A DNA stretch of 64,000 nt, taken from the IMG/VR virus record IMGVR_UViG_3300027804_003127. One strand, written 5' to 3'. The position numbers were made by a program, and so were the translations under genes. This document shows positions 8,736 through 36,104 of this stretch, piece after piece. Each line of letters opens with the position of its first letter. Position 1 is the stretch's first letter. The notes below the pieces were generated by a model. It was given only the letters and a program-made list of their open reading frames with translations. It ran no database searches and was not told where the DNA came from. Source of the stretch: a virus.

Positions 8736-10172
8736 ATGGCAAGAATAATAAAAAAAGCAAGCGGTGAAAATAAGCTTAAATTAACGTCAGAAGAATGGGC
8801 AATTCAAGGTCTTGCTAATGGTTGGATTGGTGACAGTCATATGAAAGCAATGTCCAAATTTGCTCAAGAAGAAATAAGTGACAATCAAGAATTTATAAAT
8901 ACTATTGATAATATTGACAGTCAAATAAAAATTGCCGAATCTGCATATGAAGAAAACTTACTAGCCAAATTTTCTCAAAGATCACCAGCACCAGCAACAA
9001 GGGGGTCAAGAACTCCAGCGCAAATAGCTGCGACTGAAAGAATGCAAGCAGCAAATCGTGCACGAAATGCTGCAAAGCAAATAGCTGTCTCAGGTCAAGC
9101 TTCTTCAGTTCCGCTTGCAGACACTTCTACTGTTAGATTAACACCTAAGTCTTTACTAAATCAATTTGGAACATTACCAGCTGCAGTCAATCCGTCTGGG
9201 CCAATTGGAGTCAGTCGAAGAAGGGGAGCGGCAGCAGTACCAGCAGCAGTACCAGCAGCAGTACCAGCAGCAGTACCAGCAGCAGTACCAGCAGCAGTAC
9301 CAGCAGCAGCAATGCCTAATGTTATTCCAAGAAGCGGAAACATAACTCCATATGAGATAGCGTCAGATAGTCCTCAATCTACATCTGCAGCGCAGTCAGC
9401 AAGAGCGTCTGCTCCTAGAGCATCTGTTATGGATCAAAGATATGTTGTAAATGATCCTAGAACTGGCAAACAAGTGTACACAACTCCTAACAATTTAATC
9501 AAGAGTTTGGAAAAAAACAGATTTGGAGATGCAGCGAGAGTTAATTTTCAAAGAATAGAAAGTTTGCCACCAGATCAAAAACAGGCTTTTTATAGACAAT
9601 TATCTAAGACAAAAAAAGGGCAGGAAACACTTCGGGCTTTGGGGGAATTTAGAGCAAAAGGAATAGGTGCTCCAAAAGGAGGATTTGTTCAGCGTATAGA
9701 TCCAGCAACTGGAAAACCAATATCTCAGATAGGAGCTTTAGGCCAAAAAATAAAAGGAATGCCAGGACAGGCGGTAGGTGCATTGGGTAAAAAATTTCCA
9801 CAAGGGATGCAAAACGTAAAAAGCGTTGCTGGAGGGCTTAAGCCATCTTTGGGCGTTGGAGGAATGGTTGCAGGACTTGGCGGCGCTGCCCTTGGGGTAG
9901 GGGCCTACCAGTGGCTAAAGAGTAGAGAAGTTAATAATCAGCAGATAAACCCAAAATTTATGGTAGATCCAAATGCTGCACAAAAAGCGTTTATGGCATC
10001 AGCTCAAATAAAAAATTTAAATTCATTAAGAGGAGTGTCGTCCTCTATAGATTCTTCTTTAGATAAATTAAACGCCATGCTTGTGGGTGCTGTTTCAAAA
10101 ATACAACAAGGACAGGCTGGACAGGGCATAATGGCTAGATATCAAGCTCAGCAAAATCAACCAGCAAGATAA
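8736..10172 (+). CDS. Leader-family low-complexity protein with Gly-zipper helix (putative virion internal/ejection protein)
   Basis: Start revised to ATG 8736 (GGAGAGG RBS); KLKLTSEEW..QGL.NGW leader, KFAQ, (PAAV)n, GVGGMVAGLGGAALGVG. Confidence 0.7.
   Translation: MARIIKKASGENKLKLTSEEWAIQGLANGWIGDSHMKAMSKFAQEEISDNQEFINTIDNIDSQIKIAESAYEENLLAKFSQRSPAPATRGSRTPAQIAATERMQAANRARNAAKQIAVSGQASSVPLADTSTVRLTPKSLLNQFGTLPAAVNPSGPIGVSRRRGAAAVPAAVPAAVPAAVPAAVPAAVPAAAMPNVIPRSGNITPYEIASDSPQSTSAAQSARASAPRASVMDQRYVVNDPRTGKQVYTTPNNLIKSLEKNRFGDAARVNFQRIESLPPDQKQAFYRQLSKTKKGQETLRALGEFRAKGIGAPKGGFVQRIDPATGKPISQIGALGQKIKGMPGQAVGALGKKFPQGMQNVKSVAGGLKPSLGVGGMVAGLGGAALGVGAYQWLKSREVNNQQINPKFMVDPNAAQKAFMASAQIKNLNSLRGVSSSIDSSLDKLNAMLVGAVSKIQQGQAGQGIMARYQAQQNQPAR
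9231..9302 (+). repeat. Perfect tandem repeat (GCAGCAGTACCA)x6 encoding (AAVP)6
   Basis: Read directly from the sequence. Confidence 0.95.
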
Positions 10173-10181
10173 GGGTAAAAA

Positions 10182-10733
10182 ATGAATAATAAAAAAATTA
10201 AATACACAAAAAAAGCGTGGGTAGAAGCTGGACTCAAAAAAGGCTATCTTGTCAGAAACGGCAAGGATGGATATGATATAAAAAAAGAAGCGCTTGCCCC
10301 TTTAGTGACTGGAGTTATTGGAGGAGCTTTAGGGATGGCTGGAAACTGGGCTTACGACAAAGCAAGACAAGGAGACTGGTGGCAAAGACTTAAGGGTGGA
10401 TTTGGATTCAGAGGATACGCTGTACCACAAGAAAAGCTAAATCAAATGAAGCAGCAACTTCAGCAAGCTGAAGCTGTTTTCGCAAACATGAGAGGGATAT
10501 CTCCAGAGCTTGATAGAACAATAGAAGAGTTTAAAAATAATACAACTCAAGCAATACAAAGAGCAGAAGCCGAAAACGTACAGCACGGTCAAGGAAATGC
10601 TCAAGCCTATGGTCAGCAAATGATTGACAAGCAAAATCAGCAGGCTCAGAATCAGTCTCAGCCTCAGGCCAATCAGCAGGCAGATAAAAATAACCAACAA
10701 AGCGAATCAAATCAAGGCAGTGAAAATAAATAA
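10182..10733 (+). CDS. Leader-family protein with Gly-zipper helix and Q-rich tail
   Basis: KIKYTKKAWVEAGLKKGY leader, KKEA then LAPLVTGVIGGALGMAG; paralog of 33546..34322. Confidence 0.7.
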   Translation: MNNKKIKYTKKAWVEAGLKKGYLVRNGKDGYDIKKEALAPLVTGVIGGALGMAGNWAYDKARQGDWWQRLKGGFGFRGYAVPQEKLNQMKQQLQQAEAVFANMRGISPELDRTIEEFKNNTTQAIQRAEAENVQHGQGNAQAYGQQMIDKQNQQAQNQSQPQANQQADKNNQQSESNQGSENK

Positions 10734-10741
10734 ATTATATT

Positions 10742-11830
10742 ATGTATGATTATGTAATTGTAGGATCTGGTCTTTTTGGATCTGTTTTTGCTAGAGAGTT
10801 AACAAATTTTGGCAAAAAATGTCTTATTATAGATAAAAGATCGCACATAGGCGGCAATTGTTATACTTATACTGAAGATAGCATACATGTACACGCATAT
10901 GGTCCTCATATTTTTCATACTAGCAGTAAAAGAATTTGGGAATATGTTAATAAATATACAGAATTTAATAATTACATAAACAGACCAAAAGTATCATACA
11001 AAAATAATTTATATTCTTTTCCTATAAATCTATTTACATTATACCAGCTATGGGGAGTCAAGTCTCCAGAAGAAGCTAAATGCAAATTAGAAGAAGTAAA
11101 AGTCAGAAAAGAAACCTGTGAAAATCTAGAAGACTGGATTTTGGCGCAAGTTGGACAAGAAATATATGAAAAGTTTATATATGGATATACAAAAAAGCAG
11201 TGGGGAAAAGAGCCCAGAGATTTACCGTCATCTATTATAAAAAGACTACCCATAAGATTGACAATGGATGACAATTATTTTGAAGATGAATATCAGGGAA
11301 TACCGAAGCTTGGATATACCGATTTGTTTACAAATCTTCTTGCAGACATTGAGCATGAATTGGGAGTTGATTATTTTTCAAACAGAGACAGATTCAACAA
11401 GATGGCAAAAAAAGTTGTGTACACTGGACCTATAGATGAGTTTTTTGAGTATGAGTATGGAGAATTGGAATGGAGAAGTTTAAAGTTTGAGACTAAAAAA
11501 TTAGCTCTGCAATATTTTCAAGGATCTGCCATAACAAACTATACAGAAGAAAATTGTCCTTATACTAGGATAGTAGAGCATAAGCATTTTAATTTTCTAA
11601 AAAATAATTCCACTATAATAACTATGGAATATCCTCAAAAATGGGATAAAAGTAAAGAAAAGTTTTATCCGATTAATGATGAAAAAAATAATGTACTATT
11701 TAAAAAATATCATTCATTAATAGACCACGATAAGTTTATCTTTGGTGGCAGGCTTGCTAACTATAAATACTACGATATGCACCAAGTAATAGGATCTGCC
11801 TTATCTGCTGCTGACAAAGAGACTAAATAG
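10742..11830 (+). CDS. glf: UDP-galactopyranose mutase
   Basis: VGSGLFG FAD motif, HIGGNCY, HAYGPHIFHT, GYTKKQWG, YQGIP, GRLANYKYYDMHQVI. Confidence 0.95.
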   Translation: MYDYVIVGSGLFGSVFARELTNFGKKCLIIDKRSHIGGNCYTYTEDSIHVHAYGPHIFHTSSKRIWEYVNKYTEFNNYINRPKVSYKNNLYSFPINLFTLYQLWGVKSPEEAKCKLEEVKVRKETCENLEDWILAQVGQEIYEKFIYGYTKKQWGKEPRDLPSSIIKRLPIRLTMDDNYFEDEYQGIPKLGYTDLFTNLLADIEHELGVDYFSNRDRFNKMAKKVVYTGPIDEFFEYEYGELEWRSLKFETKKLALQYFQGSAITNYTEENCPYTRIVEHKHFNFLKNNSTIITMEYPQKWDKSKEKFYPINDEKNNVLFKKYHSLIDHDKFIFGGRLANYKYYDMHQVIGSALSAADKETK

Positions 11831-11857
11831 AGGTAATAAAGTTTTACTTTAAGTATA
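11829..11857 (+). promoter_or_regulatory. Putative phage promoter AGAGG-N18-AGTATA
   Basis: Variant of the recurrent motif; 6 nt before ATG 11864, so possibly a leaderless transcript. Confidence 0.4.
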
Positions 11858-11863
11858 AACACT

Positions 11864-12853
11864 ATGCACAAAAACTGGTACAAATTATCTCAATCTTCAT
11901 CTCAATACACTGTAAAAGATAAGGACACCCTTTCTTCTATTGCACAAAATGTATTGGGCAGTTCTTCTAGATGGGTTGAAATCGCTAAACTAAATCCTAA
12001 TATTAATCCAAATCAAATTAAGGCAGGAATGGTTTTAAATATGCCATCTCAGAACGATTCCTTGTCTGCATCTGTACCAGCGAGTACTAGTCAAGGGGCA
12101 CCAGTTAGATCTCAGACTAATCCTAGTAATAATGTTAAAAGTTACATAATACAACAAAACGACACTCTTTCTGGAATAGCTGAAAAAACATTAGGAAGTG
12201 CAGCAAGGTGGAGGGAGATAGCAGCACTAAATCCTGGGTTAGATCCCAAAAATTTAAAAATAGGAACTGAAGTTATAATACCTGATATATCTAAAAAAGA
12301 AGAAACTACGAATGAGACTACTACGGCAATTTCAAGTCCTCTTGATGCTTTGAAAAATGAAATAGCAAAAGGAGAGGGTGGATATAATTCATATAATAGG
12401 GGAAAAGCTGGAGATACTCCAAATCCAGCGATTGATATCACAAAATTAACTGTTGGAGAAGTAATGCAAAGACAAAAGGGAAGTCCAGGAAGACCAAGAG
12501 ACTTTTTTGCTGTCGGTAAATACCAGTTTGTGCCACAAACCCTAGCAGCTGCCGTAAGATTTAAGCGATCTGGAGTAAGCAAAACTGACTTATTTTCTCC
12601 AGAAACGCAAGAAAAGCTTTTCCCATATTTACTATACAAGCAACCTGCTGTTATGAATTACTTAAACGGAACTTCGAATAGTATAGAAGATGCTGTAAAT
12701 GGATTAGCTGCTGAATTTGCATCTTTACCAAATACTTCTGGCGTTGGAAACTATGACAAAAAGGCTGGGAATAAGGGCAAGGGTGGATTGGGCAGGGTCG
12801 AAAAAATCAAAACAATACTTATACAATTAAGAAATTCTGGAATGTTTAAATGA
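11864..12853 (+). CDS. 2x LysM + lysozyme-like muramidase with N-terminal NWYKLSQ tag
   Basis: YTVKDKDTLSSIA..LG...RW.EIA.LNP twice; EGGYNSYN, AVGKYQF, LAAEFASLP. Confidence 0.85.
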   Translation: MHKNWYKLSQSSSQYTVKDKDTLSSIAQNVLGSSSRWVEIAKLNPNINPNQIKAGMVLNMPSQNDSLSASVPASTSQGAPVRSQTNPSNNVKSYIIQQNDTLSGIAEKTLGSAARWREIAALNPGLDPKNLKIGTEVIIPDISKKEETTNETTTAISSPLDALKNEIAKGEGGYNSYNRGKAGDTPNPAIDITKLTVGEVMQRQKGSPGRPRDFFAVGKYQFVPQTLAAAVRFKRSGVSKTDLFSPETQEKLFPYLLYKQPAVMNYLNGTSNSIEDAVNGLAAEFASLPNTSGVGNYDKKAGNKGKGGLGRVEKIKTILIQLRNSGMFK

Positions 12854-13959
12854 AGCATGATATAATTATATCAATGTTGGCTACAAGCAGTAAGCAAAAA
12901 TATGTTGATAGAATAAGTGACTTAGAGCCATATCTGATAGTAAATAGCTTCAAAAATGCCAAAATAGATTTAATTGGAGACAATTGTGATAAACCAAAAG
13001 TTGTACCTGACAGTTACTATTGGTTTAAACCAAAATATGACAAAGTCTATCAAAAATTCTGGTGTTATCTTGATTCTTTAAATATTGAAAATTTACCTAA
13101 ATGGCTAATTCAATGCGATGATGATTGTGCAACGGATGTTGGAAAACTTTATGAGTTATTAAATAGTTATTATGATTATAATGATCCTGTGTGTTTAGAA
13201 GCAACTCAGAATTACGACTTTTCTCACCCATATCACCCTATTGTGAAAAATTTTATGCCCAAATCTATCCATTATACGGCTAATGATTGGCAAAGTTCAA
13301 ACATGATACATCATCACAGCTGGGGATCTCATGTATTCAGTTATGGTATGCTTAGAAAAATGAAAGAATGGAACAGATTTCACGATTGGTGCAACAGCAT
13401 ATATCGTTTGGGTCCATCATTTGGAGATCATTTACCCTCAATGCTCGCTCTATCCTTAAAAGTACCATGCTGTGAGGTAAAATTTATACATTCTTTTTTT
13501 AATATGAATGAATTTACTGGAATAAATGAAAGTGGCCATTATGCGCAAATACATTATGTGCATAGACTTATCCCTGAATGGGGAAAGTTTACTTCACTTA
13601 TTAATAATAAAAAACCAAAAGTAAAAGTAAAAAACGATAACCAGAGGATAGATGAAATACCCAAATTAATTAATAGGCAAACTTTTAAAAAGAAAAAAAT
13701 ATCAATCAGAGCTTATAGTAAAATTAGACCAAGAGAACATCACATAATAGAGTTGCACAATGATGGAAACGCTGAAATAAGTGGAAATATTAATTTGATG
13801 TGGAATTTGTCTAATAACGGAGAAATGTTAGTATTAGATAAAGCAACAAAAAAAAGGATGGCAGAAATAAAGCCTCTAGGCTCTAAAGGTGATTTTATTA
13901 TAAAAATGAATTTACATAATAGTGATTTCAATTTGATATGGAATGGGCAAGAAATATGA
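12850..13959 (+). CDS. Putative GT-A glycosyltransferase (Fringe/GT31-like)
   Basis: K....KWLIQCDDD DxD motif; downstream G.SFGD motif. Confidence 0.5.
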   Translation: MKHDIIISMLATSSKQKYVDRISDLEPYLIVNSFKNAKIDLIGDNCDKPKVVPDSYYWFKPKYDKVYQKFWCYLDSLNIENLPKWLIQCDDDCATDVGKLYELLNSYYDYNDPVCLEATQNYDFSHPYHPIVKNFMPKSIHYTANDWQSSNMIHHHSWGSHVFSYGMLRKMKEWNRFHDWCNSIYRLGPSFGDHLPSMLALSLKVPCCEVKFIHSFFNMNEFTGINESGHYAQIHYVHRLIPEWGKFTSLINNKKPKVKVKNDNQRIDEIPKLINRQTFKKKKISIRAYSKIRPREHHIIELHNDGNAEISGNINLMWNLSNNGEMLVLDKATKKRMAEIKPLGSKGDFIIKMNLHNSDFNLIWNGQEI

Positions 13960-14219
13960 TTATAATAAAGACATCTTCATTTGATGACATAAAAAAACAT
14001 CCCGCTATTGTTCATTATGAAACAACGCAAAATCCTTTAGATAAAAGTAATTGGGAATATGTTGATGAGTATTTCTTAGAATCAAATAATATAGAAGAAG
14101 AAATAAGAAATATTTTAGGAAAACTTTCCAATTCACACAGCATACAAAAAGTAAATGATAATTTATATTACGCTAAAGACTCTAATGAAAAATATGAAAT
14201 ATTCAAGGTAACTATATGA
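13956..14219 (+). CDS. Hypothetical protein (starts MIIIKTSS)
   Basis: ATGA overlap supports a start at 13956. Confidence 0.6.
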   Translation: MIIIKTSSFDDIKKHPAIVHYETTQNPLDKSNWEYVDEYFLESNNIEEEIRNILGKLSNSHSIQKVNDNLYYAKDSNEKYEIFKVTI

Positions 14220-15220
14220 GCGGAAAAATAAGATACTCACATGGCCATGTTGAAATAAATGGAATAACTTTTCCTATGGAAGTTTTGCAAAAAGCTCAAA
14301 GTATTGCAAATAGTAAAAACGAACATGTGGGAATATGGGAAGCGGACAGAATGAGTAATGGATTTATGGGCTTTATAATTATACCAATGAAATATAAGAA
14401 TACTGACAATAAAAAAACATTAATTAGAGGATACACGCCTGCATTAGGGGGGTCTGGAGAAAAAATTCCAGAACCAATCCATATTGTTGAACACGATGAA
14501 GAACACAGCGGAATGGAGATGTTTCCCAGTAAAATATTAAGAGAAAGATCATATACACATGTAGATAGGTTGTCAAATCCTGAATGGGACATGTCTGCTT
14601 TTGCTGAAAATAAAAAAATAATGATGAAAAAAGCAGATTGGATCAATATTGGGATTAAATCTGGATGGATAAAAGATTCAGATATAGCAAAAAATAAATT
14701 ACTTTCGCAAGAAAATTACAAACAAGCTATTCCAGTAGCTCCACTACTTATGATAGCCGTACCTGCGATATTATCTGCAGCTCCTCAAATAATAGAAATG
14801 TTTAGTGGAAATAAAGAAGAGGCCGAAGCTCACGTACAAGAAGCTTTGAAAAATCCTCAAATGATACAACAACAAAATCAGGAAGCAAGTGTGATACAGC
14901 AAAGGATTCAAGGATTAATAAATAACTTACAGATCTATGCTGAAAAGATAATGCTACCATGCGCTAAGATGACTCCTCCAGAAAAATGCTCTGGAAAAGT
15001 TGTAAACGATATTAATATGCTAAAAAACAAAATATCTTCAATAGAGCAAAAATACAACACTTTATCTAAAACAAAAAACGGAGATGTTTGTGCTATATTA
15101 AAAGAAGCTCACGATTTAAACGTGTGCGCCCAAGGCGTTATTCAACTTAATGCTACTTTGTCTAAAGAAATTGAATATCTTCAAAGTGGTAATTTTGATT
15201 TTTCTGGGTACGGAGCATGA
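14216..15220 (+). CDS. Two-part protein: unknown N-domain, then an internal leader-family motif, hydrophobic helix and coiled coil
   Basis: KIMMKKADWINIGIKSGW...YKQA|IPVAPLLMIAVPAILSAA. Confidence 0.65.
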   Translation: MSGKIRYSHGHVEINGITFPMEVLQKAQSIANSKNEHVGIWEADRMSNGFMGFIIIPMKYKNTDNKKTLIRGYTPALGGSGEKIPEPIHIVEHDEEHSGMEMFPSKILRERSYTHVDRLSNPEWDMSAFAENKKIMMKKADWINIGIKSGWIKDSDIAKNKLLSQENYKQAIPVAPLLMIAVPAILSAAPQIIEMFSGNKEEAEAHVQEALKNPQMIQQQNQEASVIQQRIQGLINNLQIYAEKIMLPCAKMTPPEKCSGKVVNDINMLKNKISSIEQKYNTLSKTKNGDVCAILKEAHDLNVCAQGVIQLNATLSKEIEYLQSGNFDFSGYGA

Positions 15221-16714
15221 ATGAAAAAGATCTCAATATCTGAAGCTTTCACCAGAGAGCACGAAAAAAATCAGGCCAAAATATTACTCACTCCAGCTTC
15301 TGAGTCGTCTTTGTCTTCAGAAGCATCTTTTATATTACATAAAAATATAATGGAATTACAAAATTATAAATTTTTATTAGACAAGCTATCACCAATAATA
15401 GCAGATGCTAAATTAAAATTTCCTTTTGATTTCGAAAATATCCCTTTAATATACTTACTAACTCATTCAAAAGCTAAAAAATATGCTTTTTATATCTCTA
15501 TAATAAGTGAATCTGGCAGGTCTAAAAAAGACATACCTATATTGTTATTAAAAAGATTTGAAGAAGGAAGCGAGATATCATACAATTATATTGATCTTAC
15601 TAACGGTCAGGTTGTATTCGCACGCGGAGAACTCGCCCAAAGAGTAAAAGATGGATTAAATATACTAAAAAGAAAAAAAGCAGCAGACTTATTTGAAATA
15701 GCAGACAAGGGAAATAAACTTGCCAGAGCGGCAGATGTTATGAGAAACAAGCAACTGATAGGTATAGAACGTGGAGATGTAACCAATCTTATATCTGCTT
15801 TACCTATGTTAGAAAAATCAATAAAACTTATTGATGATAGGATTAAAAAATTTGAAGGCATGGTTAATTTTTTCGAGGAAGAGGCAAAAAAGCGAATAAA
15901 CGAAGATGGCTCTATGAAGCCCAATAGGGCTTTTTATGAAATATATGATAAGTTAGATAAAGAAATTTCTAGTCTATCTAAAAAATTCATAAAATCAGAA
16001 TCAGATGCAGTAAAAGCTTTAGTAACTAGATACAGAGGTTCTCCAGATCAATTAGAAATTGACTTTAAATCTGGAAAATTAAAAAATATACTATCATTTA
16101 ATAAAATAAGTGATGACAATAAGATATTAGATGTCATAACTGTAGCAAAAAAAATATTAAATGTATTCAAAGAATGGGACATTCAAAAAAGACAAGACAA
16201 ACTAAAAAAACAAGAGGAAAGAAAAAATAAATCTAAAGAACCACTCATAATAGATGATTCTGACCCCATATTTCAAGCATTGCCCCCATTAACCATGGAA
16301 GATTTTACCGAAGAAGTACCTGGAAATATAGCAGGCCATCAATCTCAAGAATCTTACCATGCCAGCTTTGTAGCAAAATCGCTCACTATATATCATACTA
16401 AGTTACAGGCATTAAAAACTATGAGAGAAGGCATAAGTATGATACATAATGAATTTATGAGGCAACAAAAATATGGAAAATTAAGCGTTAAAAACTTTAA
16501 TAAAACTGATATAGATAATTTATCAAAAGCGAAAGACGCTTCACTTGCTTTGATCTCTTCATATGAGACTAGTGTTGTTAAAAAAGATGGGACAATAGAT
16601 AAGAGAAAAATAGGATCAGTTTTTGAAGATGCTGTATTTGATTTATTTTTATCAAGGTATATTGCTATAGTTATTAAATATATTATTATGGTATTTAGCA
16701 AGAGTTATTCATGA
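15221..16714 (+). CDS. Hypothetical helical protein
   Basis: 497-aa ORF abutting both neighbours. Confidence 0.7.
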   Translation: MKKISISEAFTREHEKNQAKILLTPASESSLSSEASFILHKNIMELQNYKFLLDKLSPIIADAKLKFPFDFENIPLIYLLTHSKAKKYAFYISIISESGRSKKDIPILLLKRFEEGSEISYNYIDLTNGQVVFARGELAQRVKDGLNILKRKKAADLFEIADKGNKLARAADVMRNKQLIGIERGDVTNLISALPMLEKSIKLIDDRIKKFEGMVNFFEEEAKKRINEDGSMKPNRAFYEIYDKLDKEISSLSKKFIKSESDAVKALVTRYRGSPDQLEIDFKSGKLKNILSFNKISDDNKILDVITVAKKILNVFKEWDIQKRQDKLKKQEERKNKSKEPLIIDDSDPIFQALPPLTMEDFTEEVPGNIAGHQSQESYHASFVAKSLTIYHTKLQALKTMREGISMIHNEFMRQQKYGKLSVKNFNKTDIDNLSKAKDASLALISSYETSVVKKDGTIDKRKIGSVFEDAVFDLFLSRYIAIVIKYIIMVFSKSYS

Positions 16715-17241
16715 TTATAAACTGGTACAAACAAGCACAAGCCGCTGGTGGAGGAGGCCCACCTCCAGCTTCGCCACCTCCTGGACTTCCACCACTTCCT
16801 CCTCCCCCTGGCGTCCCAGGAGCTGGTCCAGGAGCTCCTTTGCCTTCAGAGTCGAGAGTTGGAACAATAAGCGGAGTGCATAAGGGAAGGATTAAGGGTG
16901 GCCACAAGTTTGATAAGGATGTAATAAACTGGCTAGATAAACATTTTAAAGATTTTTATGAAGAATACGGAGAAGACAACGAAACTATTGATGACAAAGA
17001 CCTTGGAGAAAGTCCTAGAATGAGAATAGCAAGGACTAGAACTGTGCAGCTAGCAAAAGCTGCTCCTCCAGAAGGGCTTGGCTTAGACGTAGGTGGCCCA
17101 GAGTGTCTGTCTATTGCTATGAGCATCGACGAAAAATATCCAGATAAAAAACCTCCTTTTGTTAGAGGAATACTTTGCCCAGAAAGCTCTGCTTCAGCAA
17201 GTCCAGCGGGAGGATCTACTCCGCCGCCTCCGATGATGTAA
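16711..17241 (+). CDS. Pro/Gly-rich protein with N-terminal NWYKQAQ tag
   Basis: ATGA overlap; tag followed by a polyproline segment. Confidence 0.7.
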   Translation: MIINWYKQAQAAGGGGPPPASPPPGLPPLPPPPGVPGAGPGAPLPSESRVGTISGVHKGRIKGGHKFDKDVINWLDKHFKDFYEEYGEDNETIDDKDLGESPRMRIARTRTVQLAKAAPPEGLGLDVGGPECLSIAMSIDEKYPDKKPPFVRGILCPESSASASPAGGSTPPPPMM

Positions 17242-17243
17242 AA

Positions 17244-17873
17244 ATGAAAACTTATCCATTCAAATTATCCGAATTTCAGCTTCCGTATGATGTATGTTCT
17301 CCATTGATATCAAAAGAGGCAATGAAAATACATCATCAAAAACATCATAAATTATATATAGATAATCTTAATGAGTTAGTATCAAAAGACGAATTTTTGT
17401 CAGAACTTCCAATAGATGCTTTAATATCAAAAGAAAATTTAGACAAGGTTAGCGAAGATGTTGCTGAAAAAATAAGAAATTTTGGCGGTGGACATTTTAA
17501 TCATATGATTTTCTTTAGCGTACTAAGTAGTAAAAAAAATTCTCCAGGAAAAATGCTAGAAAATTTAGTTAAAAGCAATTTTAGCAACTATGATGATTTT
17601 ATTAACGAATTTAAAGAAAAAGCTAATTCTCATTTTGGATCTGGATGGTGCTGGGCTATCATAGGAAAGTCTGGCTTGGAAATTAAAACAACAAAAAATC
17701 AAGATAATCCTGTAAATTATGAAAAATGTAAACCCATTTTAGGAATAGATTTATGGGAGCATGCATACTACTTAGATCATCAAAATAGAAAAAAAGAATA
17801 CATAGAAGGAATATTCGATCATATAAATTGGAAGCAAGTTGAAAACTATATCTTAGAGGCAGAAAATGGATAA
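17244..17873 (+). CDS. sodA: Fe/Mn superoxide dismutase (Mn-type signatures)
   Basis: HHQKHH, NFGGGHFNH, FGSGW, NQDNP, DLWEHAYY; start revised to ATG 17244. Confidence 0.92.
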   Translation: MKTYPFKLSEFQLPYDVCSPLISKEAMKIHHQKHHKLYIDNLNELVSKDEFLSELPIDALISKENLDKVSEDVAEKIRNFGGGHFNHMIFFSVLSSKKNSPGKMLENLVKSNFSNYDDFINEFKEKANSHFGSGWCWAIIGKSGLEIKTTKNQDNPVNYEKCKPILGIDLWEHAYYLDHQNRKKEYIEGIFDHINWKQVENYILEAENG

Positions 17874-18156
17874 TAAAGATGAAAATTGGTACTTGCGCTC
17901 ACTGCAAAATATAGCTGATAGCGTAGGAAACATTAAACTAAAAAGATCAGATTCTATAAAGAAAATAATGAATGAGTCTTTTGATATAAAAATCAGTTCT
18001 GACCAAAGTAAAAAAATAATATCTATGCTTGATAAAACATTGGAAGAAGATGAAAAGATTTCTTATTTGGAAGATGAATTATCTTCTATATTAGAAAACG
18101 TTGATAACTTTACTATTAAAAAGATATCTAATTATTTGTATAATTATACAAATTAA
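17866..18156 (+). CDS. Hypothetical protein
   Basis: GAGG RBS; contains ENWYLRS, a possible tag variant. Confidence 0.6.
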   Translation: MDNKDENWYLRSLQNIADSVGNIKLKRSDSIKKIMNESFDIKISSDQSKKIISMLDKTLEEDEKISYLEDELSSILENVDNFTIKKISNYLYNYTN

Positions 18157-19866: not shown

Positions 19867-19868
19867 TT

Positions 19869-20941: not shown

Positions 20942-20948
20942 ATGGATA

Positions 20949-20976
20949 TATACTATTGCGTTTTACTATAACCTTT
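20949..20976 (-). promoter_or_regulatory. Putative phage promoter AAAGG-N17-AGTATA
   Basis: Recurrent motif 7 nt before ATG 20941 with no SD, so possibly leaderless. Confidence 0.55.
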
Positions 20977-20987
20977 GGAGCAAAAAC

Positions 20988-22742: not shown

Positions 22743-23552
22743 ATGAAAAAAACTAAGAAACACAAAATAAAACAGGATATAAAATTGTGGCAAGACTTAG
22801 ATGCTATTAGGAATAGCACTAATGATTTTAAAAATAATGATAATTACAAAACAGTAAGGGCTAAGCTAGCAGAGCTCAATTACCCTATAGTTTTAAAGCT
22901 TGCAGATCTTATGCATCATAAGTATCCAGAAACAGACAAAGACGATCTTCAGGGATTCGGAGCTCTAGGCCTTCTTGATGCAATTGATAAATTTGATCCT
23001 TATAAAAATATTCAATTTGAGACTTTCGCTACGTATCGGATCTTTGGATCAATGTATGATGAAATGAGAAAATTAGACTGGGTCCCAAGATTGACAAGAC
23101 AACGGTATTCTAAGATGGAAAAAATAAGAGAAAAATTTACCATTATTAATGGTAGAAGTCCTACTCGTGAAGAATTAATACAAATGGCTCCTGGAGATTC
23201 TGAATTAGAAAAAGAAAAGATAGTTGATGATAGTGTAGTTAAATTTTCTTATTCTATAAACAAGTCTAGTAACTCTGATGATGAAGAAGATTTTTCATCA
23301 ATACATTGTGATAAAAAGAATAATTTTTTTGAAGAACTAGATAGAATAGATCTGTTTAAAAACTATATAGTTTCTAATTTGGAAGATGTAGAGTCTAAGT
23401 TTATTTATCTGGTTTACTACGAGGGAAGATCGCTAAAGGAAGCTGCTAAAATCCTTGGAATCAAAGAAAGTAGAAGTTCTTCTATGCATGACTCTGTTCT
23501 TAAGAAGCTTGAGCCAATATTTAAGGAAGACAAAAATATCCTCATGAGGTAA
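22743..23552 (+). CDS. RNA polymerase sigma factor, FliA/WhiG (sigma-28) family
   Basis: DDLQGFG.LGLLDAIDKFDP...FETFATYRI.G.M.DE.R.LDWVPR; region 3 GRSPT.EEL; region 4 YYEG.SLKE.A.ILG..ESR. Confidence 0.9.
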   Translation: MKKTKKHKIKQDIKLWQDLDAIRNSTNDFKNNDNYKTVRAKLAELNYPIVLKLADLMHHKYPETDKDDLQGFGALGLLDAIDKFDPYKNIQFETFATYRIFGSMYDEMRKLDWVPRLTRQRYSKMEKIREKFTIINGRSPTREELIQMAPGDSELEKEKIVDDSVVKFSYSINKSSNSDDEEDFSSIHCDKKNNFFEELDRIDLFKNYIVSNLEDVESKFIYLVYYEGRSLKEAAKILGIKESRSSSMHDSVLKKLEPIFKEDKNILMR

Positions 23553-23555
23553 TTT

Positions 23556-24777: not shown

Positions 24778-24795
24778 GTGTCTGATTCAAGTAAG
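24768..24795 (+). promoter_or_regulatory. Putative phage promoter AAAGG-N17-AGTAAG
   Basis: Recurrent motif upstream of the RNR gene. Confidence 0.55.
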
Positions 24796-24822
24796 AGCAG
24801 TAAAAATATTAAAGGAGACAAA

Positions 24823-27357: not shown

Positions 27358-27366
27358 GGAGAATTT

Positions 27367-27840
27367 ATGAATATTGTTTTTGAAAAATTACATGAAAACT
27401 CAATAACACCTGTTAAGGCTAACAGTAATGATTCAGGATGGGACCTGTTTGCATGCAATGATGCAGAAATAGAAACTAGAATAATAAATAATGTTGAATA
27501 TATAGTTAACTTTATTTACGACACTGGCGTAAGGGTTGCTTTTCCAGAAAATATATGCGGATTTGTCTATCCCAGATCTAGTATCAAGAAATATGACTTA
27601 ATATTATCAAACTCAGTTGGAGTTATAGACGAAGGATACAGGGGTAGTGTCAAAGTTGCATTTAGACCTATTGTACCACTTCCAAAATATGGACTAGAAA
27701 TTGATTATAAAATATATCAAAAAGGGGATAGGATAGCTCAGCTCGTAATTACTAGAAGAGAAAATTTCAATCTTGTTGAAGGCACTGTAAGTACAGACAC
27801 TGCTAGATCAACAGGTGGATTTGGATCTTCTGGTGCTTGA
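27367..27840 (+). CDS. dut: Trimeric dUTPase
   Basis: SGWDL, PRSS, NSVGVIDEGYRG, GDRIAQL, RSTGGFGSSG. Confidence 0.96.
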   Translation: MNIVFEKLHENSITPVKANSNDSGWDLFACNDAEIETRIINNVEYIVNFIYDTGVRVAFPENICGFVYPRSSIKKYDLILSNSVGVIDEGYRGSVKVAFRPIVPLPKYGLEIDYKIYQKGDRIAQLVITRRENFNLVEGTVSTDTARSTGGFGSSGA

Positions 27841-29663
27841 TGACAATAGACCCAAATAAAGTACTTTATGTATATAATGCTAATGACGAATACAGTGAAT
27901 CCTTAGCATTAGAATACAGCTTAGTTCGACAGATCCCAAGCATTAATTTGCTTGGGATCAATTCTATTACCTCTTCGGTATATCAATCTAGATTAGATTT
28001 TGAACAATCTTTACTTGATCAAATATTAGCAAAAATAGATTCATTAGGATCTTTTCCTAACACTATACATGCTTGTATATTGGGATACAGAGTTCCAGCT
28101 GGATATGTTGAAGAAAATTATGTTATATCTTGCTGCTCAGCTGTTGCTGCAGCATTTACGGGAAAAGACTCTGTATGTTTAAACCCTGCATATAGAAAAT
28201 CTGAAATATCTGCAGAACTATATGATTTCAACGTAATGCCATGCTGCCAACATGACCTACCAGCATATGGTTTGATGAAGAAAAAAATAGCAGAATTTTC
28301 AGGATATAGAAATGGCATACTCTCGAATGGGTATTTATATTTTGATAGATGGAGCTTAAAAGAAGAATATGGATACGATTATTATGCTGAAGAATTAAGC
28401 TCTTTTGAGCAAAATTTTATTAAGAATTATTTCAAATCTTATTTATTGACTTCAGAACCTATAGACAATCTAAGAAGCGACTTCGGATTTGCTTCTTCTG
28501 ATTCTTTTTTCTGGTCTGCTGGTTTACAGAACTTAACTACTAGCTTTTTTTTGACTCAAAATAGATTGAATCGAATTTTTTTCTTTAATGCAGATACTGA
28601 TTCATTTAAAAGTTTTAGATCTGACAATGTCTTTGGACCAGCTATCGCTGCTTTAGACTCAGGATATATATCTGCAGCTGGGATGATGAGCGACTTACCC
28701 GAGACAGAATTGATTCTCGATCAAATAGATCCTTATGATATTAAAACTGCATCAACAGTTTCTTGCTGGCTTAGACCTGAGCCTTTTTTCTACAGCGCTA
28801 GCAAAGACTATACTTTACTGGAATCAATGTATTTTGCTTCACCATTACTATGTTCTCCTATGACTTACTTTTGCGACCCTTTATGTAAGGTTATTTTTAA
28901 TAATGATTTATCAATTCCTAGTAAGTTTTCTCCAAAAGAGTCTTGGTCTAGAATACATGAGATACTAAGTCAATGTTCCGCTCTATTATTAAGAAGAATA
29001 AATTCAGCTACAGCTTTAACAGGAAGAGCGGGTACATATAGAGATGTTAACGATAAAATTTGGGCTTTAGACAGATATAGGGGAATAAGCACCAACAATA
29101 CATTGATACAAATTTCTTCTCAAGTGAACCCCGCTTTTTCTGCATGGAAAAAATTTGCTGAAATAGCATATTTCGATCAGTTTGATGGCTTAAAGCCTTC
29201 TTTTATAGACATAATAAATAATTTAGACTTTAAATTAACTAATGCTTTTATAAGACTTAATATAAATTCTTCTCAACTTAATGAGAAAATTGATACTGTA
29301 AATAAAGAAGTAAAAGGATCTTTTATCATAGAGACATATTTACCTGAAATAAATTTAGGAACTGGTTTTTATCAAATAAAAGCAGATATTTACTTAGACC
29401 AATTAGATTCAAGTCCGTTTATCTCGTCAACATCTTTTGCAGAAAAAACTTCATGGCTTGTGGAAGACTTTGATAAAACATTTAAGAATTTCCCAAACGA
29501 AGGCTTATTTAGTTCTTTAACTTCAAGAAAAATAAAGTTTTACAATAGAAAGGAAATACAAGATAAAAACATCGGAGATAATGTTTGGGTAAAGCTAACA
29601 TTTACTTTAGATTACACTAGATCTTACACAACAGATTTTATAGAGGCTTTGATAATATCATGA
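27837..29663 (+). CDS. Divergent TIGR03790-like protein
   Basis: P..VL.VYNAN...S..LA.EY...R.IP..NL N-terminus; later NPAY, E.MY.ASP.L.....DPL. Confidence 0.5.
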   Translation: MMTIDPNKVLYVYNANDEYSESLALEYSLVRQIPSINLLGINSITSSVYQSRLDFEQSLLDQILAKIDSLGSFPNTIHACILGYRVPAGYVEENYVISCCSAVAAAFTGKDSVCLNPAYRKSEISAELYDFNVMPCCQHDLPAYGLMKKKIAEFSGYRNGILSNGYLYFDRWSLKEEYGYDYYAEELSSFEQNFIKNYFKSYLLTSEPIDNLRSDFGFASSDSFFWSAGLQNLTTSFFLTQNRLNRIFFFNADTDSFKSFRSDNVFGPAIAALDSGYISAAGMMSDLPETELILDQIDPYDIKTASTVSCWLRPEPFFYSASKDYTLLESMYFASPLLCSPMTYFCDPLCKVIFNNDLSIPSKFSPKESWSRIHEILSQCSALLLRRINSATALTGRAGTYRDVNDKIWALDRYRGISTNNTLIQISSQVNPAFSAWKKFAEIAYFDQFDGLKPSFIDIINNLDFKLTNAFIRLNINSSQLNEKIDTVNKEVKGSFIIETYLPEINLGTGFYQIKADIYLDQLDSSPFISSTSFAEKTSWLVEDFDKTFKNFPNEGLFSSLTSRKIKFYNRKEIQDKNIGDNVWVKLTFTLDYTRSYTTDFIEALIIS

Positions 29664-30148
29664 TATTACCTGGAGAATTTAAATTAACTTCTGAATACGC
29701 TGCAGACATTATAGGAGTTACAGATAAAGTTGTTATCTTAATACAAGAGGCCTTAAATATATGCAAGAATCAAACTGACGTAAATCTTGCTGATTACAGG
29801 ATGGAAGAGCTTATAGGAGGACTTAGATTAACAGGAAACACTTTATATAATTCTGTAAATTTTAGTGACAACTATCTTATTAATTTAGTTGCTAACATGG
29901 CGGAAAAAATTAAAATACAGTATGGAATATCATTCGATCAATTTTTAGAAGAGCAATATTTAGAAATAAATCAAGTACTTTATGAGAAGATGCCTATCTT
30001 TGCAATTAATAATCCAACAGAAAGATTTGGAGATAAATATGCAAGGTGGTCTGATATAGATTCTAATATTGATTCTATAAATCTGTCCATGCATTCTAAT
30101 ACGAGAATGACCTGGTCTTTTATAGGCGCTACGAATACTGACATTTAA
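29660..30148 (+). CDS. Hypothetical protein
   Basis: ATGA overlap; GAGG RBS. Confidence 0.65.
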   Translation: MILPGEFKLTSEYAADIIGVTDKVVILIQEALNICKNQTDVNLADYRMEELIGGLRLTGNTLYNSVNFSDNYLINLVANMAEKIKIQYGISFDQFLEEQYLEINQVLYEKMPIFAINNPTERFGDKYARWSDIDSNIDSINLSMHSNTRMTWSFIGATNTDI

Positions 30149-30556
30149 TTAAGTCAAATAGTCTATATTATTTTCTATCTTTTTTATAGTATCTGTATAT
30201 CTATACCACAAAGATGGATCGCCTTCAAATGATGAAACATTTGCTGCTATTATTTTCATAAGTGACATGGCTAGTCTTATGTCTCTTAGAGTATCTGAAG
30301 CTTTTTTGATTTCTTTATCATCTAAAAATTTGTTGAGCTTAAGTATTATTGCTTTGTCTTCTGGATAATTCTTTTTTATATCTCTTGAAATTTCTTCCAT
30401 ATTTTTCTTAATTGATTCTAATATTATCTTATCTTTAAGCATTTCATACTGAAGATTTTCATTTTTTGATATCAGATTAGACATCATATTAATAGCATTA
30501 TTAGTGCTTTCTATGCTTTTTGTAAAAAGTTGCTTTTCTAAATCATTCATGAGCAT
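30149..30556 (-). CDS. Hypothetical coiled-coil protein
   Basis: In a minus-strand operon. Confidence 0.6.
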   Translation of the reverse strand: MLMNDLEKQLFTKSIESTNNAINMMSNLISKNENLQYEMLKDKIILESIKKNMEEISRDIKKNYPEDKAIILKLNKFLDDKEIKKASDTLRDIRLAMSLMKIIAANVSSFEGDPSLWYRYTDTIKKIENNIDYLT

Positions 30557-31131
30557 GTAATCATGTGTGAAAAACTTTTGCTTTCTATCCTATTCATTGC
30601 CCCTGTAAGCCATGGATACATGTTTGACTTCATTCTATCCATCAGTCTCTTGCCTTCCTTAGAAGCGCCTCCAGTGGCCGTTCCCTTGCCTCTTACGATT
30701 ATATCTCTTATTTCGTTAGAAAATATATAGTGATTCATTAAAATTTCAATCATGCTTTCAAAATTTTTGTCGTAATAATTTGATGGCGGACTTTTCTTCC
30801 ATTGACAATATAAGCTTTTTGCTATTTTTGACAGTTCTCCAGGGTCATTTGCATTCATAATTTCTTGACCTAAGTCTTTTGCAAAAGCAGATCCTTTTGG
30901 AGAAAAGAAAGAATACCCCTCAGTCAATCTGTCAATATTTACTTCATCTTGAGTTTTATCAAATAAATTAAGTCCTGTGTCTATAATTTTTCCAGTACTT
31001 GATCCTTCCATCAAGTGTTGAGAAACTGGATTGCTATAGATTGAATCTATTGCTCTCCAGATTGGTCTGGCTAAACTTCCGATAGCCTTTTTACTTAAGT
31101 ATAAAGTTGAGTTGGAATATATTTTAATCAT
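30547..31131 (-). CDS. Hypothetical protein with K-x-A leader followed by an amphipathic helix
   Basis: MIKIYSNSTLYLSKKA|IGSLARPIWRAIDSIY. Confidence 0.65.
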   Translation of the reverse strand: MIKIYSNSTLYLSKKAIGSLARPIWRAIDSIYSNPVSQHLMEGSSTGKIIDTGLNLFDKTQDEVNIDRLTEGYSFFSPKGSAFAKDLGQEIMNANDPGELSKIAKSLYCQWKKSPPSNYYDKNFESMIEILMNHYIFSNEIRDIIVRGKGTATGGASKEGKRLMDRMKSNMYPWLTGAMNRIESKSFSHMITCS

Positions 31132-31137
31132 TTTAAA

Positions 31138-31728
31138 TTACCTTATTTTTGAACAAATTACATATAGCATTTGCATTTTTCTAGCAAAACCTGGATCTAC
31201 TGGTGCAAGCTTGGAGAACAATTTTTCACTATCAAACATATGTTTTATATGATTTAATATTAATATAAAATCTGGTGGATATTTGTTTGACAATACACCT
31301 GCATACTCGTGAGGATGGATAATCTGTAGTTCGAATTTTTTTCTTATAGCATCATTGCTTTTAGACTTCAAAAGCTGTTTTCCCATAAAACTCTTACCTC
31401 TGCGTTCAATCATATTCTGAGTGTGAGTTATATAATGCAAAGACATTCTGTATATACTTTCACACACTTCTTTTATTTCTTTCATGCCACTTATGCTATA
31501 AGCGACTCTAGGGGTAAAATAGATATTCCCCTCTTCTGCTGCTTTCTTTGCAGCCTTGACTGCTTCTAATTGCATTTGTGTTTCTATATCTATTTGTGAA
31601 TCAATATCTCTTATAACTTGGTCCATGAATATATGCATCATATTCATTGAATTAAATTCATCTTCACTTAAAGAATCTTCTAGTGAATGATCAAAAAAAG
31701 AAAAAGTAGATCTTAAAAGGTTTTTCAT
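31138..31728 (-). CDS. Hypothetical protein
   Basis: 196-aa ORF heading a minus-strand operon. Confidence 0.65.
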   Translation of the reverse strand: MKNLLRSTFSFFDHSLEDSLSEDEFNSMNMMHIFMDQVIRDIDSQIDIETQMQLEAVKAAKKAAEEGNIYFTPRVAYSISGMKEIKEVCESIYRMSLHYITHTQNMIERRGKSFMGKQLLKSKSNDAIRKKFELQIIHPHEYAGVLSNKYPPDFILILNHIKHMFDSEKLFSKLAPVDPGFARKMQMLYVICSKIR

Positions 31729-31779
31729 TTATTATTTGTATATAAAATATATTATGTATTTATCGAGGTATATCCTTAT

Positions 31780-32646
31780 ATGAATCTTTTTAATTCTAAT
31801 AGTATAACTTTTAAGAGAAATAGTCAACTTATAAAATTGGCTCAAAGCAATGCATCAGCTGGTGCCTCAGCAAATGCTCAGTCTTACAACAGTGGAAATA
31901 CTCAGTCTAAAAATAATACTCAAACAAATCCACAAACTCCAAGAACAAATACTGCGCCTACAAATACGCCTAGCGCGTCTTCTGGATCAGGAAATGCTCA
32001 ATCTAATCAAGCTCAATCTTCTAATAAGGGACAGGTAGATTTTTATCATGAAAATCTTTTAAAATCTGATAATGCCATGAGAACATCTCTTGGTCTTCCC
32101 CCATTTAAATCGGTAAGAGAGATGTTAGAGGCAAGAAGTAGATTAAAGTCAGAATATGAAGCTGCCATGAGGTACTATGCAAGTAAAAATATGATGACTG
32201 AAGCACAATTTAAGCAAACCTACCCTACTGTATATGACTTTGAAGCTGACCAAAAAAGAGGATCTCATAATATATTAGAAAGAAGTTTTGGAGATGAAGC
32301 AATTCTTAATGCAATTATTACAAATGATGATTCAGTATTAAACAATACATCTTCTCATGAAGTAACTAGAGTTATGAACGAATTTGTAAAAAGATTGCCA
32401 TCAATTCAAAAAGGAGAAGACTTAGCTAGCTATGAGCATAGAGTAAGACTAGCATTAGCTCCTTACGACTTTACACATGCAGAAGTTAAGGAATATTTTG
32501 TTAAGATAAAATTGCTTGACGCTAAAAGAAGAGTTGCTTCACAAAGTAGAGCTTTTTCTAATAAAGCGAAAGATGAACAAGTTATACAAGATTCTAGAAG
32601 CTTACAAAGTAGAACACCTATTAGGGTAACTCGTTTTGATCAATAA
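31780..32646 (+). CDS. Hypothetical protein with IKLAQ leader and S/N/Q-rich linker
   Basis: GAGG RBS; AAAGG-N16-TGTATA upstream at 31716-31742. Confidence 0.7.
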   Translation: MNLFNSNSITFKRNSQLIKLAQSNASAGASANAQSYNSGNTQSKNNTQTNPQTPRTNTAPTNTPSASSGSGNAQSNQAQSSNKGQVDFYHENLLKSDNAMRTSLGLPPFKSVREMLEARSRLKSEYEAAMRYYASKNMMTEAQFKQTYPTVYDFEADQKRGSHNILERSFGDEAILNAIITNDDSVLNNTSSHEVTRVMNEFVKRLPSIQKGEDLASYEHRVRLALAPYDFTHAEVKEYFVKIKLLDAKRRVASQSRAFSNKAKDEQVIQDSRSLQSRTPIRVTRFDQ

Positions 32647-32664
32647 TACTTAGTTAATTAAATT

Positions 32665-32695
32665 AAAAAAGGCAAGATTATATCTTGCCTTTTTT
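32665..32695. terminator. Bidirectional intrinsic terminator
   Basis: AAAAAAGGCAAGAT-tat-ATCTTGCCTTTTTT between convergent genes. Confidence 0.88.
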
Positions 32696-32715
32696 ATTTG
32701 ATTTTTATTACCTTA

Positions 32716-33534
<819 letters not shown>

Positions 33535-33545
33535 TTTACCCTCTA

Positions 33546-34322
<777 letters not shown>

Positions 34323-34330
34323 ATTTCCTC

Positions 34331-35260
34331 TTAATCTTTTATGTAACCTGGAAAACCTTGATTTGCTCCTTGAGCTGGAGCTTGAGGTTGTTTCATTCCT
34401 TGATTAAAGCCAGACATCCCACTAGGCATTTTTTGAGCTTGAGCAGCGATGTCTCCAACTGCTTTCATTGCATCTTTCATATAAGCATCTAAAGTGCTAT
34501 TTATTCCAGATATAGGAGCTACTGCTTCTTGCAATAATGCAAGACCTTTATAGAATTCATTTGGATTCCAGTGCTGTATGGTGTTATCTTTTTCTGTTAA
34601 TTTTGCTATACCTTCACCAGCTACGTATCCAGTAAGTCCTCCTGCCAGACCTGCACCTGCAACTCCTAGCCAATTTATTTTTGGCTTTCTTGGTCTTCGT
34701 GGCTTTGGTGGTGTAGGGGGTGGTGTAGGGGAAGGTGTAGGGGAAGGTGTGGGTGAAGGTGTAGGTGAAGGTGTAGGTGAAGGTGTAGGTGAAGGTGTAG
34801 GTGAAGGTGTAGGGGAAGGTCCAGTTCCTAATTTATTTAAAATTGCAGCATAATTTTGAATACTTAGATTATTCGTAGGATCAGCTATTTTTCCAGTTTT
34901 AACATTCTTTATTGCGAATAAACCGCTCCCTGGAGATGGAGTAACTGTTTTTTTACCAGTTGTTGGATCTTTGCCAACAGCGATCTCCAAGACTTCATAT
35001 CCTTGAGGGACAGCCCTACTCCTATAGGCAAGCAATGCAGCTACATATGATGGATCTTTAAGTTTGCCTTGATTCTCATCAAACAACAATCTTGCCCCAA
35101 CAGTAGTTGCACCAGCACCAGCACCAGCACCTAATGCTGTTTTGATTATCCCATTTTCTTTATAAAAAAGATTGTTTTTAATTCCTGAATTAAGCCACTC
35201 TTGGGAGCTTAACTTTACCATAGTTTTATTTTGATTTGCCAGTTTTATTAAACGTGCCAT
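34331..35260 (-). CDS. Leader-family protein with (PSPT)n and Gly-zipper helix
   Basis: MARLIKLA..VKLSSQEWLNSGIK..IKTA; LGVAGAGLAGGLTG; paralog of 8736..10172. Confidence 0.7.
   Translation of the reverse strand: MARLIKLANQNKTMVKLSSQEWLNSGIKNNLFYKENGIIKTALGAGAGAGATTVGARLLFDENQGKLKDPSYVAALLAYRSRAVPQGYEVLEIAVGKDPTTGKKTVTPSPGSGLFAIKNVKTGKIADPTNNLSIQNYAAILNKLGTGPSPTPSPTPSPTPSPTPSPTPSPTPSPTPSPTPPPTPPKPRRPRKPKINWLGVAGAGLAGGLTGYVAGEGIAKLTEKDNTIQHWNPNEFYKGLALLQEAVAPISGINSTLDAYMKDAMKAVGDIAAQAQKMPSGMSGFNQGMKQPQAPAQGANQGFPGYIKD
34724..34819 (-). repeat. 12-bp tandem repeat encoding (PSPT)8
   Basis: Near-perfect GTAGGTGAAGGT units. Confidence 0.9.
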
Positions 35261-35318
35261 TTTTGCCCTCTTTTATAAACCATTTTTTAAAAATAAATTT
35301 GATATAATCCTTTAATTT

Positions 35319-36104
35319 TTATAAATTCTTACTTATGTAATCAAGCTCTTTAGCTATTTCTTTTCCCATATAGTCAAGAACAGAACTTATTCCAGATATT
35401 CTTTTTATATTAGATATCATAGCTGCAGACCCAGCGTTAAATCCCGATTTACCATGAGAATAATTATCTAATGCTTTTTTCCTAACGGTCCTGTCTGCTT
35501 GCATACTTTCTTTAGCCTTATTTATTAAATAGCTACTGGCAAGCCACCCAGTTGCTCCACCTGCTAAACCAGCCCCAACTCTTCCAAGTATTGGGGCACC
35601 TTTTTGATTAATAAAGTCTTTTATTTTAGAACTTCTTTGATTTTTTAATAATTTTCTTAATTCAGAATCTGAATATAGACCTATTTCGTCTGAAAGAAGA
35701 TTTGGATTTTTTCTTAGAATCTGTTCTAATACTACATTTCTTTTATTTTCAGGCATTTTAGCTATTGTATCTAATGTTATTGGAGAACCTTTATACAAAA
35801 TTGTGGATAGAACTTTATTTTGCTCATTAGGACTTAATGCTTTTAATGCAGCCATTAATGTTGCAGCACCTATAGCTGATTCTACATATTGACCTGACTT
35901 ATCTTCTTTTTCTTTTTCTTTTTCTTCTTCTTCATTTGGTTTTGTGTTTTTGTTTTTATCTTTATTAAAAAAAGACAACAAAGAACCATTTCCTCCTGTG
36001 GTAGGAATCGGTATGTCAAAATCAACCTGAGCATATTTGTGGATGGGAATCCAACCATTACTTATGCCTGTTTCTATCCATTGTTTTTTAGATATTTTAA
36101 TCAA
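35319..36104 (-). CDS. Leader-family protein with Gly-zipper helix
   Basis: Start revised to TTG 36104 (TTGA overlap); IKISKKQWIETGISNGW..KYAQ; VGAGLAGGATG; ISGISSVLD. Confidence 0.65.
   Translation of the reverse strand: MIKISKKQWIETGISNGWIPIHKYAQVDFDIPIPTTGGNGSLLSFFNKDKNKNTKPNEEEEKEKEKEDKSGQYVESAIGAATLMAALKALSPNEQNKVLSTILYKGSPITLDTIAKMPENKRNVVLEQILRKNPNLLSDEIGLYSDSELRKLLKNQRSSKIKDFINQKGAPILGRVGAGLAGGATGWLASSYLINKAKESMQADRTVRKKALDNYSHGKSGFNAGSAAMISNIKRISGISSVLDYMGKEIAKELDYISKNL

Follow-up and report, generated by a model that had tools for sequence, protein, structure and literature searches.

Six proteins encoded between positions 8,736 and 36,104 of the virus record IMGVR_UViG_3300027804_003127 in IMG/VR (64,000 nucleotides, called here the window) carry a conserved leader, the long tag, and behind it a Lys-x-Ala (K-x-A) triplet. 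The window is an AT-rich phage fragment, and the six proteins are named after the position at which their genes start. Across the fetched DNA the tag occurs on 71 distinct proteins whose cargo falls into 57 families, soluble enzymes included. It is a portable module of one lineage of very large, uncultured phages from fresh water that is conserved at the protein level, and not the mark of a membrane-protein family, as a preliminary description of the window had it. We read the tag as a T4-like signal on accessory cargo, which would load a protein into the prohead and would then be cut; we give this reading a probability of about 0.62.

The long tag and its cargo

The consensus of the tag covers 16 residues, K-[IL]-S-K-x-[EQ]-W-x-x-x-G-x-x-x-G-W, and it appears as an amphipathic helix bearing Trp. 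All six leaders that had been described are present in the sequence, and the first K-x-A follows 4-17 residues past the tag in six of six. A hidden Markov model (HMM) built from 37 tags of unrelated cargo was run against the 66 open reading frames of the window. It found 36104 (E 2e-7), 34322 (E 3e-6), 14216 (E 9e-6) and 35260 (E 0.018), and missed 10182 (E 5) and 8736, which are linked to the tag set via orthologues and paralogues. The first HMM of the tag recovered, from a syntenic relative, two copies that had been held out of it (E 1.5e-4 and 4.9e-3), and the best of the reversed decoys reached E 0.38. Because a tag-only model recovers four of the six, held-out copies were found and no decoy was better than this value, the leader is more than chance. 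Conserved positions use all six Ser codons and all four Gly codons, so the conservation acts on the protein; between tag pairs in the window there are 38 synonymous differences against 36 identical codons.

Mainly cellular matches, which the preliminary description had taken as counting against its idea, were not seen, and the tag is almost confined to viruses. Its degenerate DNA pattern matched 34 stretches of viral contigs versus two in GTDB (596 Gb of prokaryote genomes). One of these two was without HMM support, and the other, on a 2.5-kb contig in a 0.6-Mb bin, is probably phage DNA. Among 1.84 billion proteins, a profile search found orthologues as well as short unrelated proteins in which K-x-A follows the tag immediately, one of them carrying two tags. 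Literature searches turned up neither the tag nor a K-x-A rule.

Tags are mostly N-terminal, and internal, tandem (P0009) and C-terminal copies occur too. A full-length glucose-6-phosphate dehydrogenase (G6PD) has an N-terminal long tag (L044:4098-5492; G013, G025), while in a GHKL-type ATPase (L072:16096-18654; G028) the tag forms the last ~20 residues, up to the stop codon. Tandem arrays in L043 (G012) and L064 (G028) hold four to five small genes, each with a long-form tag at its start and unrelated cargo at its end. Many of the tagged proteins are small, variable and of no recognised function.

The K-x-A site and the head protease

K-x-A borders leader and cargo. K-x-[AS] starts two residues past the last Trp of the tag in 36 of 69 copies. 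Among 25 relatives of 10182 and 34322 (25-68% identity to 10182) K35 and A37 are invariant, and length varies just downstream. The -2 residue is hydrophobic at five of six junctions, and the pattern hydrophobic-x-K-x-A fits both the long tag and a second, shorter tag described below.

The same triplet was found in head proteins. In relative G001, whose terminase large subunit (TerL) is 86% identical to that of the window, the head block encodes a portal, a major capsid protein of 290 residues and a protease-scaffold protein of 1,888 residues. In three close relatives the protease-scaffold protein contains 38-46 K-x-A, 2.7-3.0-fold enriched against expectation, and the ratio in tail genes is 0.77. 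Between relatives 63-65% of these K-x-A are kept versus 26-31% for other K-x-X. Their -2 residue is hydrophobic in 51% versus a background of 25%, and position +3 is Ser in 48 of 125, with K-x-A-S commonest.

The protease domain of G001 matched PHROG 18299, head maturation protease (E 2e-13), and its His59 and Ser110 are invariant; Pfam S77 gave no match in a search that had no positive control. When the structure model of this domain was searched with Foldseek, 50 of the 50 listed rows were herpes assemblins or T4 gp21 (E 0.006-0.09), and the top match of the VIA wide structure search was gp21 (Z 6.2, root-mean-square deviation 4.0, 116 aligned). The low-confidence model shows an assemblin/gp21-like fold, and the protease is fused to a scaffold of ~1,600 residues. 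K-x-A is probably the cutting site of this head protease. Assemblins cut after Ala, usually before Ser (our literature search to confirm this found nothing), which makes a cut behind the Ala of K-x-A the most likely; the assemblin P3 residue is hydrophobic rather than Lys. A cleavable pro-leader of the phage head, as first suggested from the window alone, has indirect support from a tag almost confined to viruses, from K-x-A at its border and from the same triplet in the protease-scaffold of close relatives.

A candidate late promoter, A-A-G-G-W and an A/T-rich box with 15-19 nucleotides between, stands before 8736, 35260 and some head genes (Fisher p 0.014, from noisy gene starts and the close clade only), and in the window it was not enriched against shuffles. 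A shared late promoter is a lead only. A weakly supported candidate promoter with an A-A-A-G-G box was also noticed before several K-x-A genes. Separately, the protease-scaffold genes of G019 (58732-65652) and G023 (1885-8922) are split at the catalytic Ser-Met-Gly motif by apparent inteins.

The short tag

A second, shorter tag, N-W-Y-K-x-A, is frequent in the same genomes on many unrelated proteins, and the CCA-adding enzyme of G001 bears it. The pattern W-[YF]-K-x-[AS] was counted 45 times versus 0-8 in shuffles. Long and short tags appear exchangeable on like cargo, because the G013 protein at the position of 16711 has the long tag in place of the short, and the small Cys domain that follows a short tag in protein 1488 sits behind the long tag in L065. 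Comparison of 14216 with a W-Y-K-tagged protein of G019 gave only E 0.41. N-W-Y-K-x-A genes were noted over positions 1488-17241 of the window, and also in relatives G008, G016 and G019.

The core family and the membrane question

Five of the six proteins have in common a core of ~90 residues, in which a Gly/Ala-rich helix and an aromatic belt are accompanied by two helices with a G-[IM]-S turn between them. Profile comparison within groups links 10182 with 34322, 10182 with 8736 and 35260 with 36104 (E values of 7e-6, 3e-6 and 5e-9), and the two core groups are linked with a probability of 84% (E 8e-6). Protein 14216 was unrelated to the core in this comparison; it is a separate hydrophobic cargo. 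The six-member family proposed before is hence a family of five, with which 14216 has the tag in common but not the core.

The sequence confirms five Gly-rich helices, the plain hydrophobic helix in 14216 and, in four proteins, the G-[IV]-[SN]-x-x-[LI]-D turn; orthologues of 34322 have the turn too, making five. The Gly helix lies ~150-330 residues past the K-x-A site in 8736, 35260 and 36104. By hydropathy, the helix of 14216 is the only classically hydrophobic one (Kyte-Doolittle mean over 19 residues, 2.13) and the other helices are marginally hydrophobic (1.12-1.35 in four of them); the best hydropathy window of 8736 is its Pro-Ala-Ala-Val repeat. Neither Pfam nor PHROG gave a significant family for any of the six. 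The AlphaFold model of 10182, of low confidence (predicted local distance difference test, pLDDT, 54.5), had no fold match. PDB sequence matches were generic helices, and ESM Atlas gave only unnamed clusters, below 0.9.

The analogy with bacteriocin or fusion-peptide propeptides suits 10182 and 14216, in which a cut would expose a greasy segment directly, and does not suit the others. A class II bacteriocin with a double-glycine leader was considered and rejected, because the leader ends in K-x-A and not in Gly-Gly. No bacteriocin family of Pfam matched the six proteins, and no C39 peptidase transporter was recognised in the window.

Six relatives (G002, G008, G013, G025, G036 and G037) retain a unit of two genes, the long form followed by the short form. 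G013 and G037 have this unit once, and it is expanded in the window and in G008. This synteny suggests that an ancestral two-gene unit was duplicated to form the five-protein family. The number of core copies varies from 2 (G013, G037) to 5 (window, G008), and in G016, a fragment with 36% completeness, the neighbours of both loci are present and the core genes absent. At the cassette 1 position of G016, near the helicase, lies a gene (119559-120974, L103-L104) whose product of 471 residues has several K-x-A near its start and long segments that are hydrophobic and rich in Gly.

Proposed function and alternatives

Under the prohead-loading reading, the tag would bind the scaffold core late in infection, and the prohead would close around the tagged proteins. 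The head protease of the phage itself would cut after the Ala of K-x-A, and the freed cargo would leave with the DNA into the next host. Several points weigh against this. About a quarter of the long tags (19 of 71) are without K-x-[AS] within 25 residues, and the one at the end of its protein means that the tag is not always a removable N-terminal leader. Tagged G6PD, GHKL ATPase and helicase are atypical virion content. The enrichment of K-x-A is weaker in distant relatives (1.5-1.7), it is absent over the full length of the six proteins (1.02), and the scaffold was not found to contain the long tag itself. For the protease, the evidence is from G001 and not from the window, and the protease model has a pLDDT of 53.

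Some of these points would suit a tag that sorts proteins in the infected cell, toward the membrane, an assembly site or a phage chaperone, with K-x-A for turnover or activation and most tagged proteins never packaged. Metabolic and replication-type cargo, use of the tag at any position including the C-terminus, its look of an amphipathic Trp-bearing helix and the copies that lack a nearby K-x-[AS] are all in line with such sorting. However, the motif at the junction matches the one that is dense in the head block and its scaffold and not in the tail genes, and many tagged proteins resemble the internal proteins of T4 in being small, variable and of no known function, so we regard sorting in the cell as quite unlikely. 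The near-identical tandem copies in L043 and G028 might also come from a repeated DNA cassette (promoter, ribosome site, gene start) copied before new genes, of which the tag would be a by-product. This was rejected by the codon usage, with synonymous codons freely used at conserved residues; moreover, internal and C-terminal copies cannot be gene starts and the upstream DNA of the six genes is not alike, which leaves it extremely improbable.

The preliminary description had instead taken the six proteins for an ejection channel or membrane effectors. In its strong form, as an essential trans-envelope DNA channel formed after ejection, like T7 gp14-16 or P22 gp7/gp20/gp16, this draws on the Gly-rich helix and hairpin common to five proteins, on the two-gene unit kept in six relatives, on sizes of 183-309 residues that resemble gp14/gp7 (PMC8954989), on the failure to find a tail sheath in the fragments with the tail block, and on a tagged lysozyme-like gene nearby. 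But it is weakened because copy number varies and the core genes are absent at both syntenic loci of G016. Each protein has one marginal helix versus the four or five predicted in gp14-like proteins (PMC8954989). Pfam, PHROG and PDB connected them with no known ejection protein (with a low-confidence model), and no large gp15/gp16-like partner gene is adjacent; we therefore judge an essential channel unlikely. As far as the fragment G016 can tell, exchangeable cargo that associates with membranes accounts for the pattern better than an essential DNA channel does. Membrane action of the five core proteins is plausible, and if they are packaged, the chance that they would, once ejected, associate as accessory factors with the membrane of the host is about even. 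Prohead loading can tentatively be widened, at odds well short of even, to a two-tag, position-independent sorting code with a Lys-x-Ala assemblin-type protease and an exchangeable head kit, which would include G6PD and membrane-inserting paralogues that open or remodel the envelope.

If prohead loading is true, sequence alone could reveal what the virions of a widespread, uncultured clade with ~400-kb genomes carry, host-type metabolic enzymes included. For a phage head protease, a specificity for Lys-x-Ala was not found described in the literature. A second portable packaging tag besides that of T4 could also serve to load proteins into large capsids. Least secure is the part on the membrane-type family, which would be a candidate entry or anti-defence factor.

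Features of the window and its relatives

The features are collected in Table 1. The gene for 8736 starts with ATG at 8736, and the TTG of 36104 overlaps the upstream stop. In relatives, cassette 2 has its last gene at a conserved position.

Table 1. Tagged genes, their parts and other genes discussed (K-x-A and core positions are of the window; w/o, without).
Feature	Coordinates	Strand	Remarks
Protein 8736	8736..10172	+	478 residues; long form; cassette 1, first gene; short M-x-R-I-I-K-x-A pre-leader, tag, Pro/Ala-rich linker, C-terminal Gly-helix/hairpin core
Tag of 8736	8772..8825	+	residues 13-30; next K-x-A 8856-8864
Core domain of 8736	9840..10139	+	Gly helix, aromatic belt, hairpin
Protein 10182	10182..10733	+	183 residues; short form; cassette 1, second gene; tag, K-x-A, core immediately behind site, Gln-rich tail
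Tag of 10182	10194..10247	+	residues 5-22; K35-x-A37 10284-10292; core 10293-10583
Protein 14216	14216..15220	+	334 residues; internal tag; hydrophobic helix behind K-x-A; w/o core
Internal tag of 14216	14615..14668	+	residues 134-151; K-x-A 14720-14728; hydrophobic helix 14729-14785
Protein 34322	33546..34322	-	258 residues; paralogue of 10182; cassette 2
Tag of 34322	34260-34313	-	K-x-A 34215-34223; core 33873-34172
Protein 35260	34331..35260	-	309 residues; long form; cassette 2
Tag of 35260	35168-35221	-	K-x-A 35135-35143; Pro-Ser-Pro-Thr linker; core 34385-34684
Protein 36104	35319..36104	-	261 residues; TTG start; cassette 2
Tag of 36104	36051-36104	-	K-x-A 36030-36038; core 35322-35603
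Cassette 2, last gene	32716..33534	-	co-oriented; early K-x-A; w/o long tag or core
AAA_33 protein	1488..2123	+	internal N-W-Y-K-x-A tag ahead of small Cys domain
SNF2-like helicase	4740..8657	-	early hydrophobic-x-K-x-A and C-terminal W-Y-K-x-A; divergent neighbour of cassette 1
LysM/lysozyme-like protein	11864..12853	+	W-Y-K tag (K-x-S variant)
Pro-rich protein	16711..17241	+	short N-W-Y-K-x-A tag
TerL	59752..62832	+	served to find relatives

A 244,792-base metagenome contig carries protein 10182 and its neighbours, and the CheckV completeness of the IMG/VR relatives implies genomes of roughly 400 kb. The capsid gene was found in 13 tag-bearing records, ~69-88% identical to that of G001 where full length, and the G001 capsid query had no match in the large tag-bearing records G020 and G028. 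The TerL of the window is ~400 residues longer than in G002 and G013, with an apparent intein-like insertion. Freshwater RNA contigs from four studies match parts of 33.3-36.4 kb at 95-100% identity, tagged genes included; the RNA runs were picked using this stretch, and the contigs reveal neither strand nor level.

Directly upstream of cassette 2 there is always a gene (36101-36436 in the window) for a basic protein of 111 residues, 73-90% identical across relatives and with no family match. A phage-encoded FliA/WhiG-like sigma factor lies at 22743-23552. Genes of the ADP-heptose pathway at 55417-57454, with HldE kinase and adenylyltransferase domains and an HldD epimerase, hint at a Gram-negative host or glycosylated fibres. 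The product of 528-1307, with a signal-peptide-like start and a weak beta-barrel match (Phenol_MetA_deg), is possibly an outer-membrane protein.

Comparison with known systems

By major capsid protein the closest cultured relative is Bacillus phage G (Donellivirus gee), whose gp27 is 51.6% identical to the capsid protein of G001. Its gp19 protease aligns with the protease domain here and contains 8 K-x-A in 300 residues. Phage G proteins gp9, gp13, gp20 and gp38 start with basic K-R-L-x-x-K-x-A-like leaders, which resemble the pre-leader of 8736 and 35260 (L130, 9524-36314). However, phage G yielded neither the core family nor the long tag, for which no candidate passed a first look. Phage G has a contractile tail, and the available part of the source (PMC12484599) reports no cleavage sites.

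SPN3US and phiKZ are also large phages with many candidate head proteins, paralogue families and repeated cut sites in propeptide-like regions, as given in the accessible portion of PMC10052503. There the cut falls after A-x-E, nine SPN3US proteins are shown cut, and no common leader helix is described in that portion, whereas the head genes here are of the phage G/cluster C mycobacteriophage type. Herpesvirus assemblin (UL26/UL80) has the same protease fold and is likewise fused N-terminally to a scaffold, but its viruses infect eukaryotes, have few cut sites and are not known to use a portable cargo tag. T7 gp14 and P22 gp7 have ~200 residues, are helical with Gly/Ala-rich hydrophobic segments and are carried in the head (PMC8954989). 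They differ from the core family in having no detectable homology to it and four or five helices rather than one marginal helix; the core genes vary in copy number and form no operon with large gp15/gp16-like partners.

The capsid targeting sequence (CTS) of T4 stands on internal proteins IPI-III and is removed by the prohead protease gp21; 10 residues suffice for packaging, and the cargo varies between phages (PMC9026906, PMC3012670). In both cases a short conserved leader sits on diverse, fast-changing proteins of one lineage and ends in a three-residue protease motif also used in head proteins, and relative G001 has, by its low-confidence model, a gp21/assemblin-type prohead protease. On the other hand there is no sequence likeness, and the CTS has 10 residues where the tag has ~16. 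The motif is K-x-A here and x-x-E there. The tag is also found internal, tandem and C-terminal, a second tag N-W-Y-K-x-A coexists with it, and the protease is fused to its large scaffold. In the most likely scheme the tag would work like the CTS of T4; by sequence, cut site and position it stands outside the CTS family.

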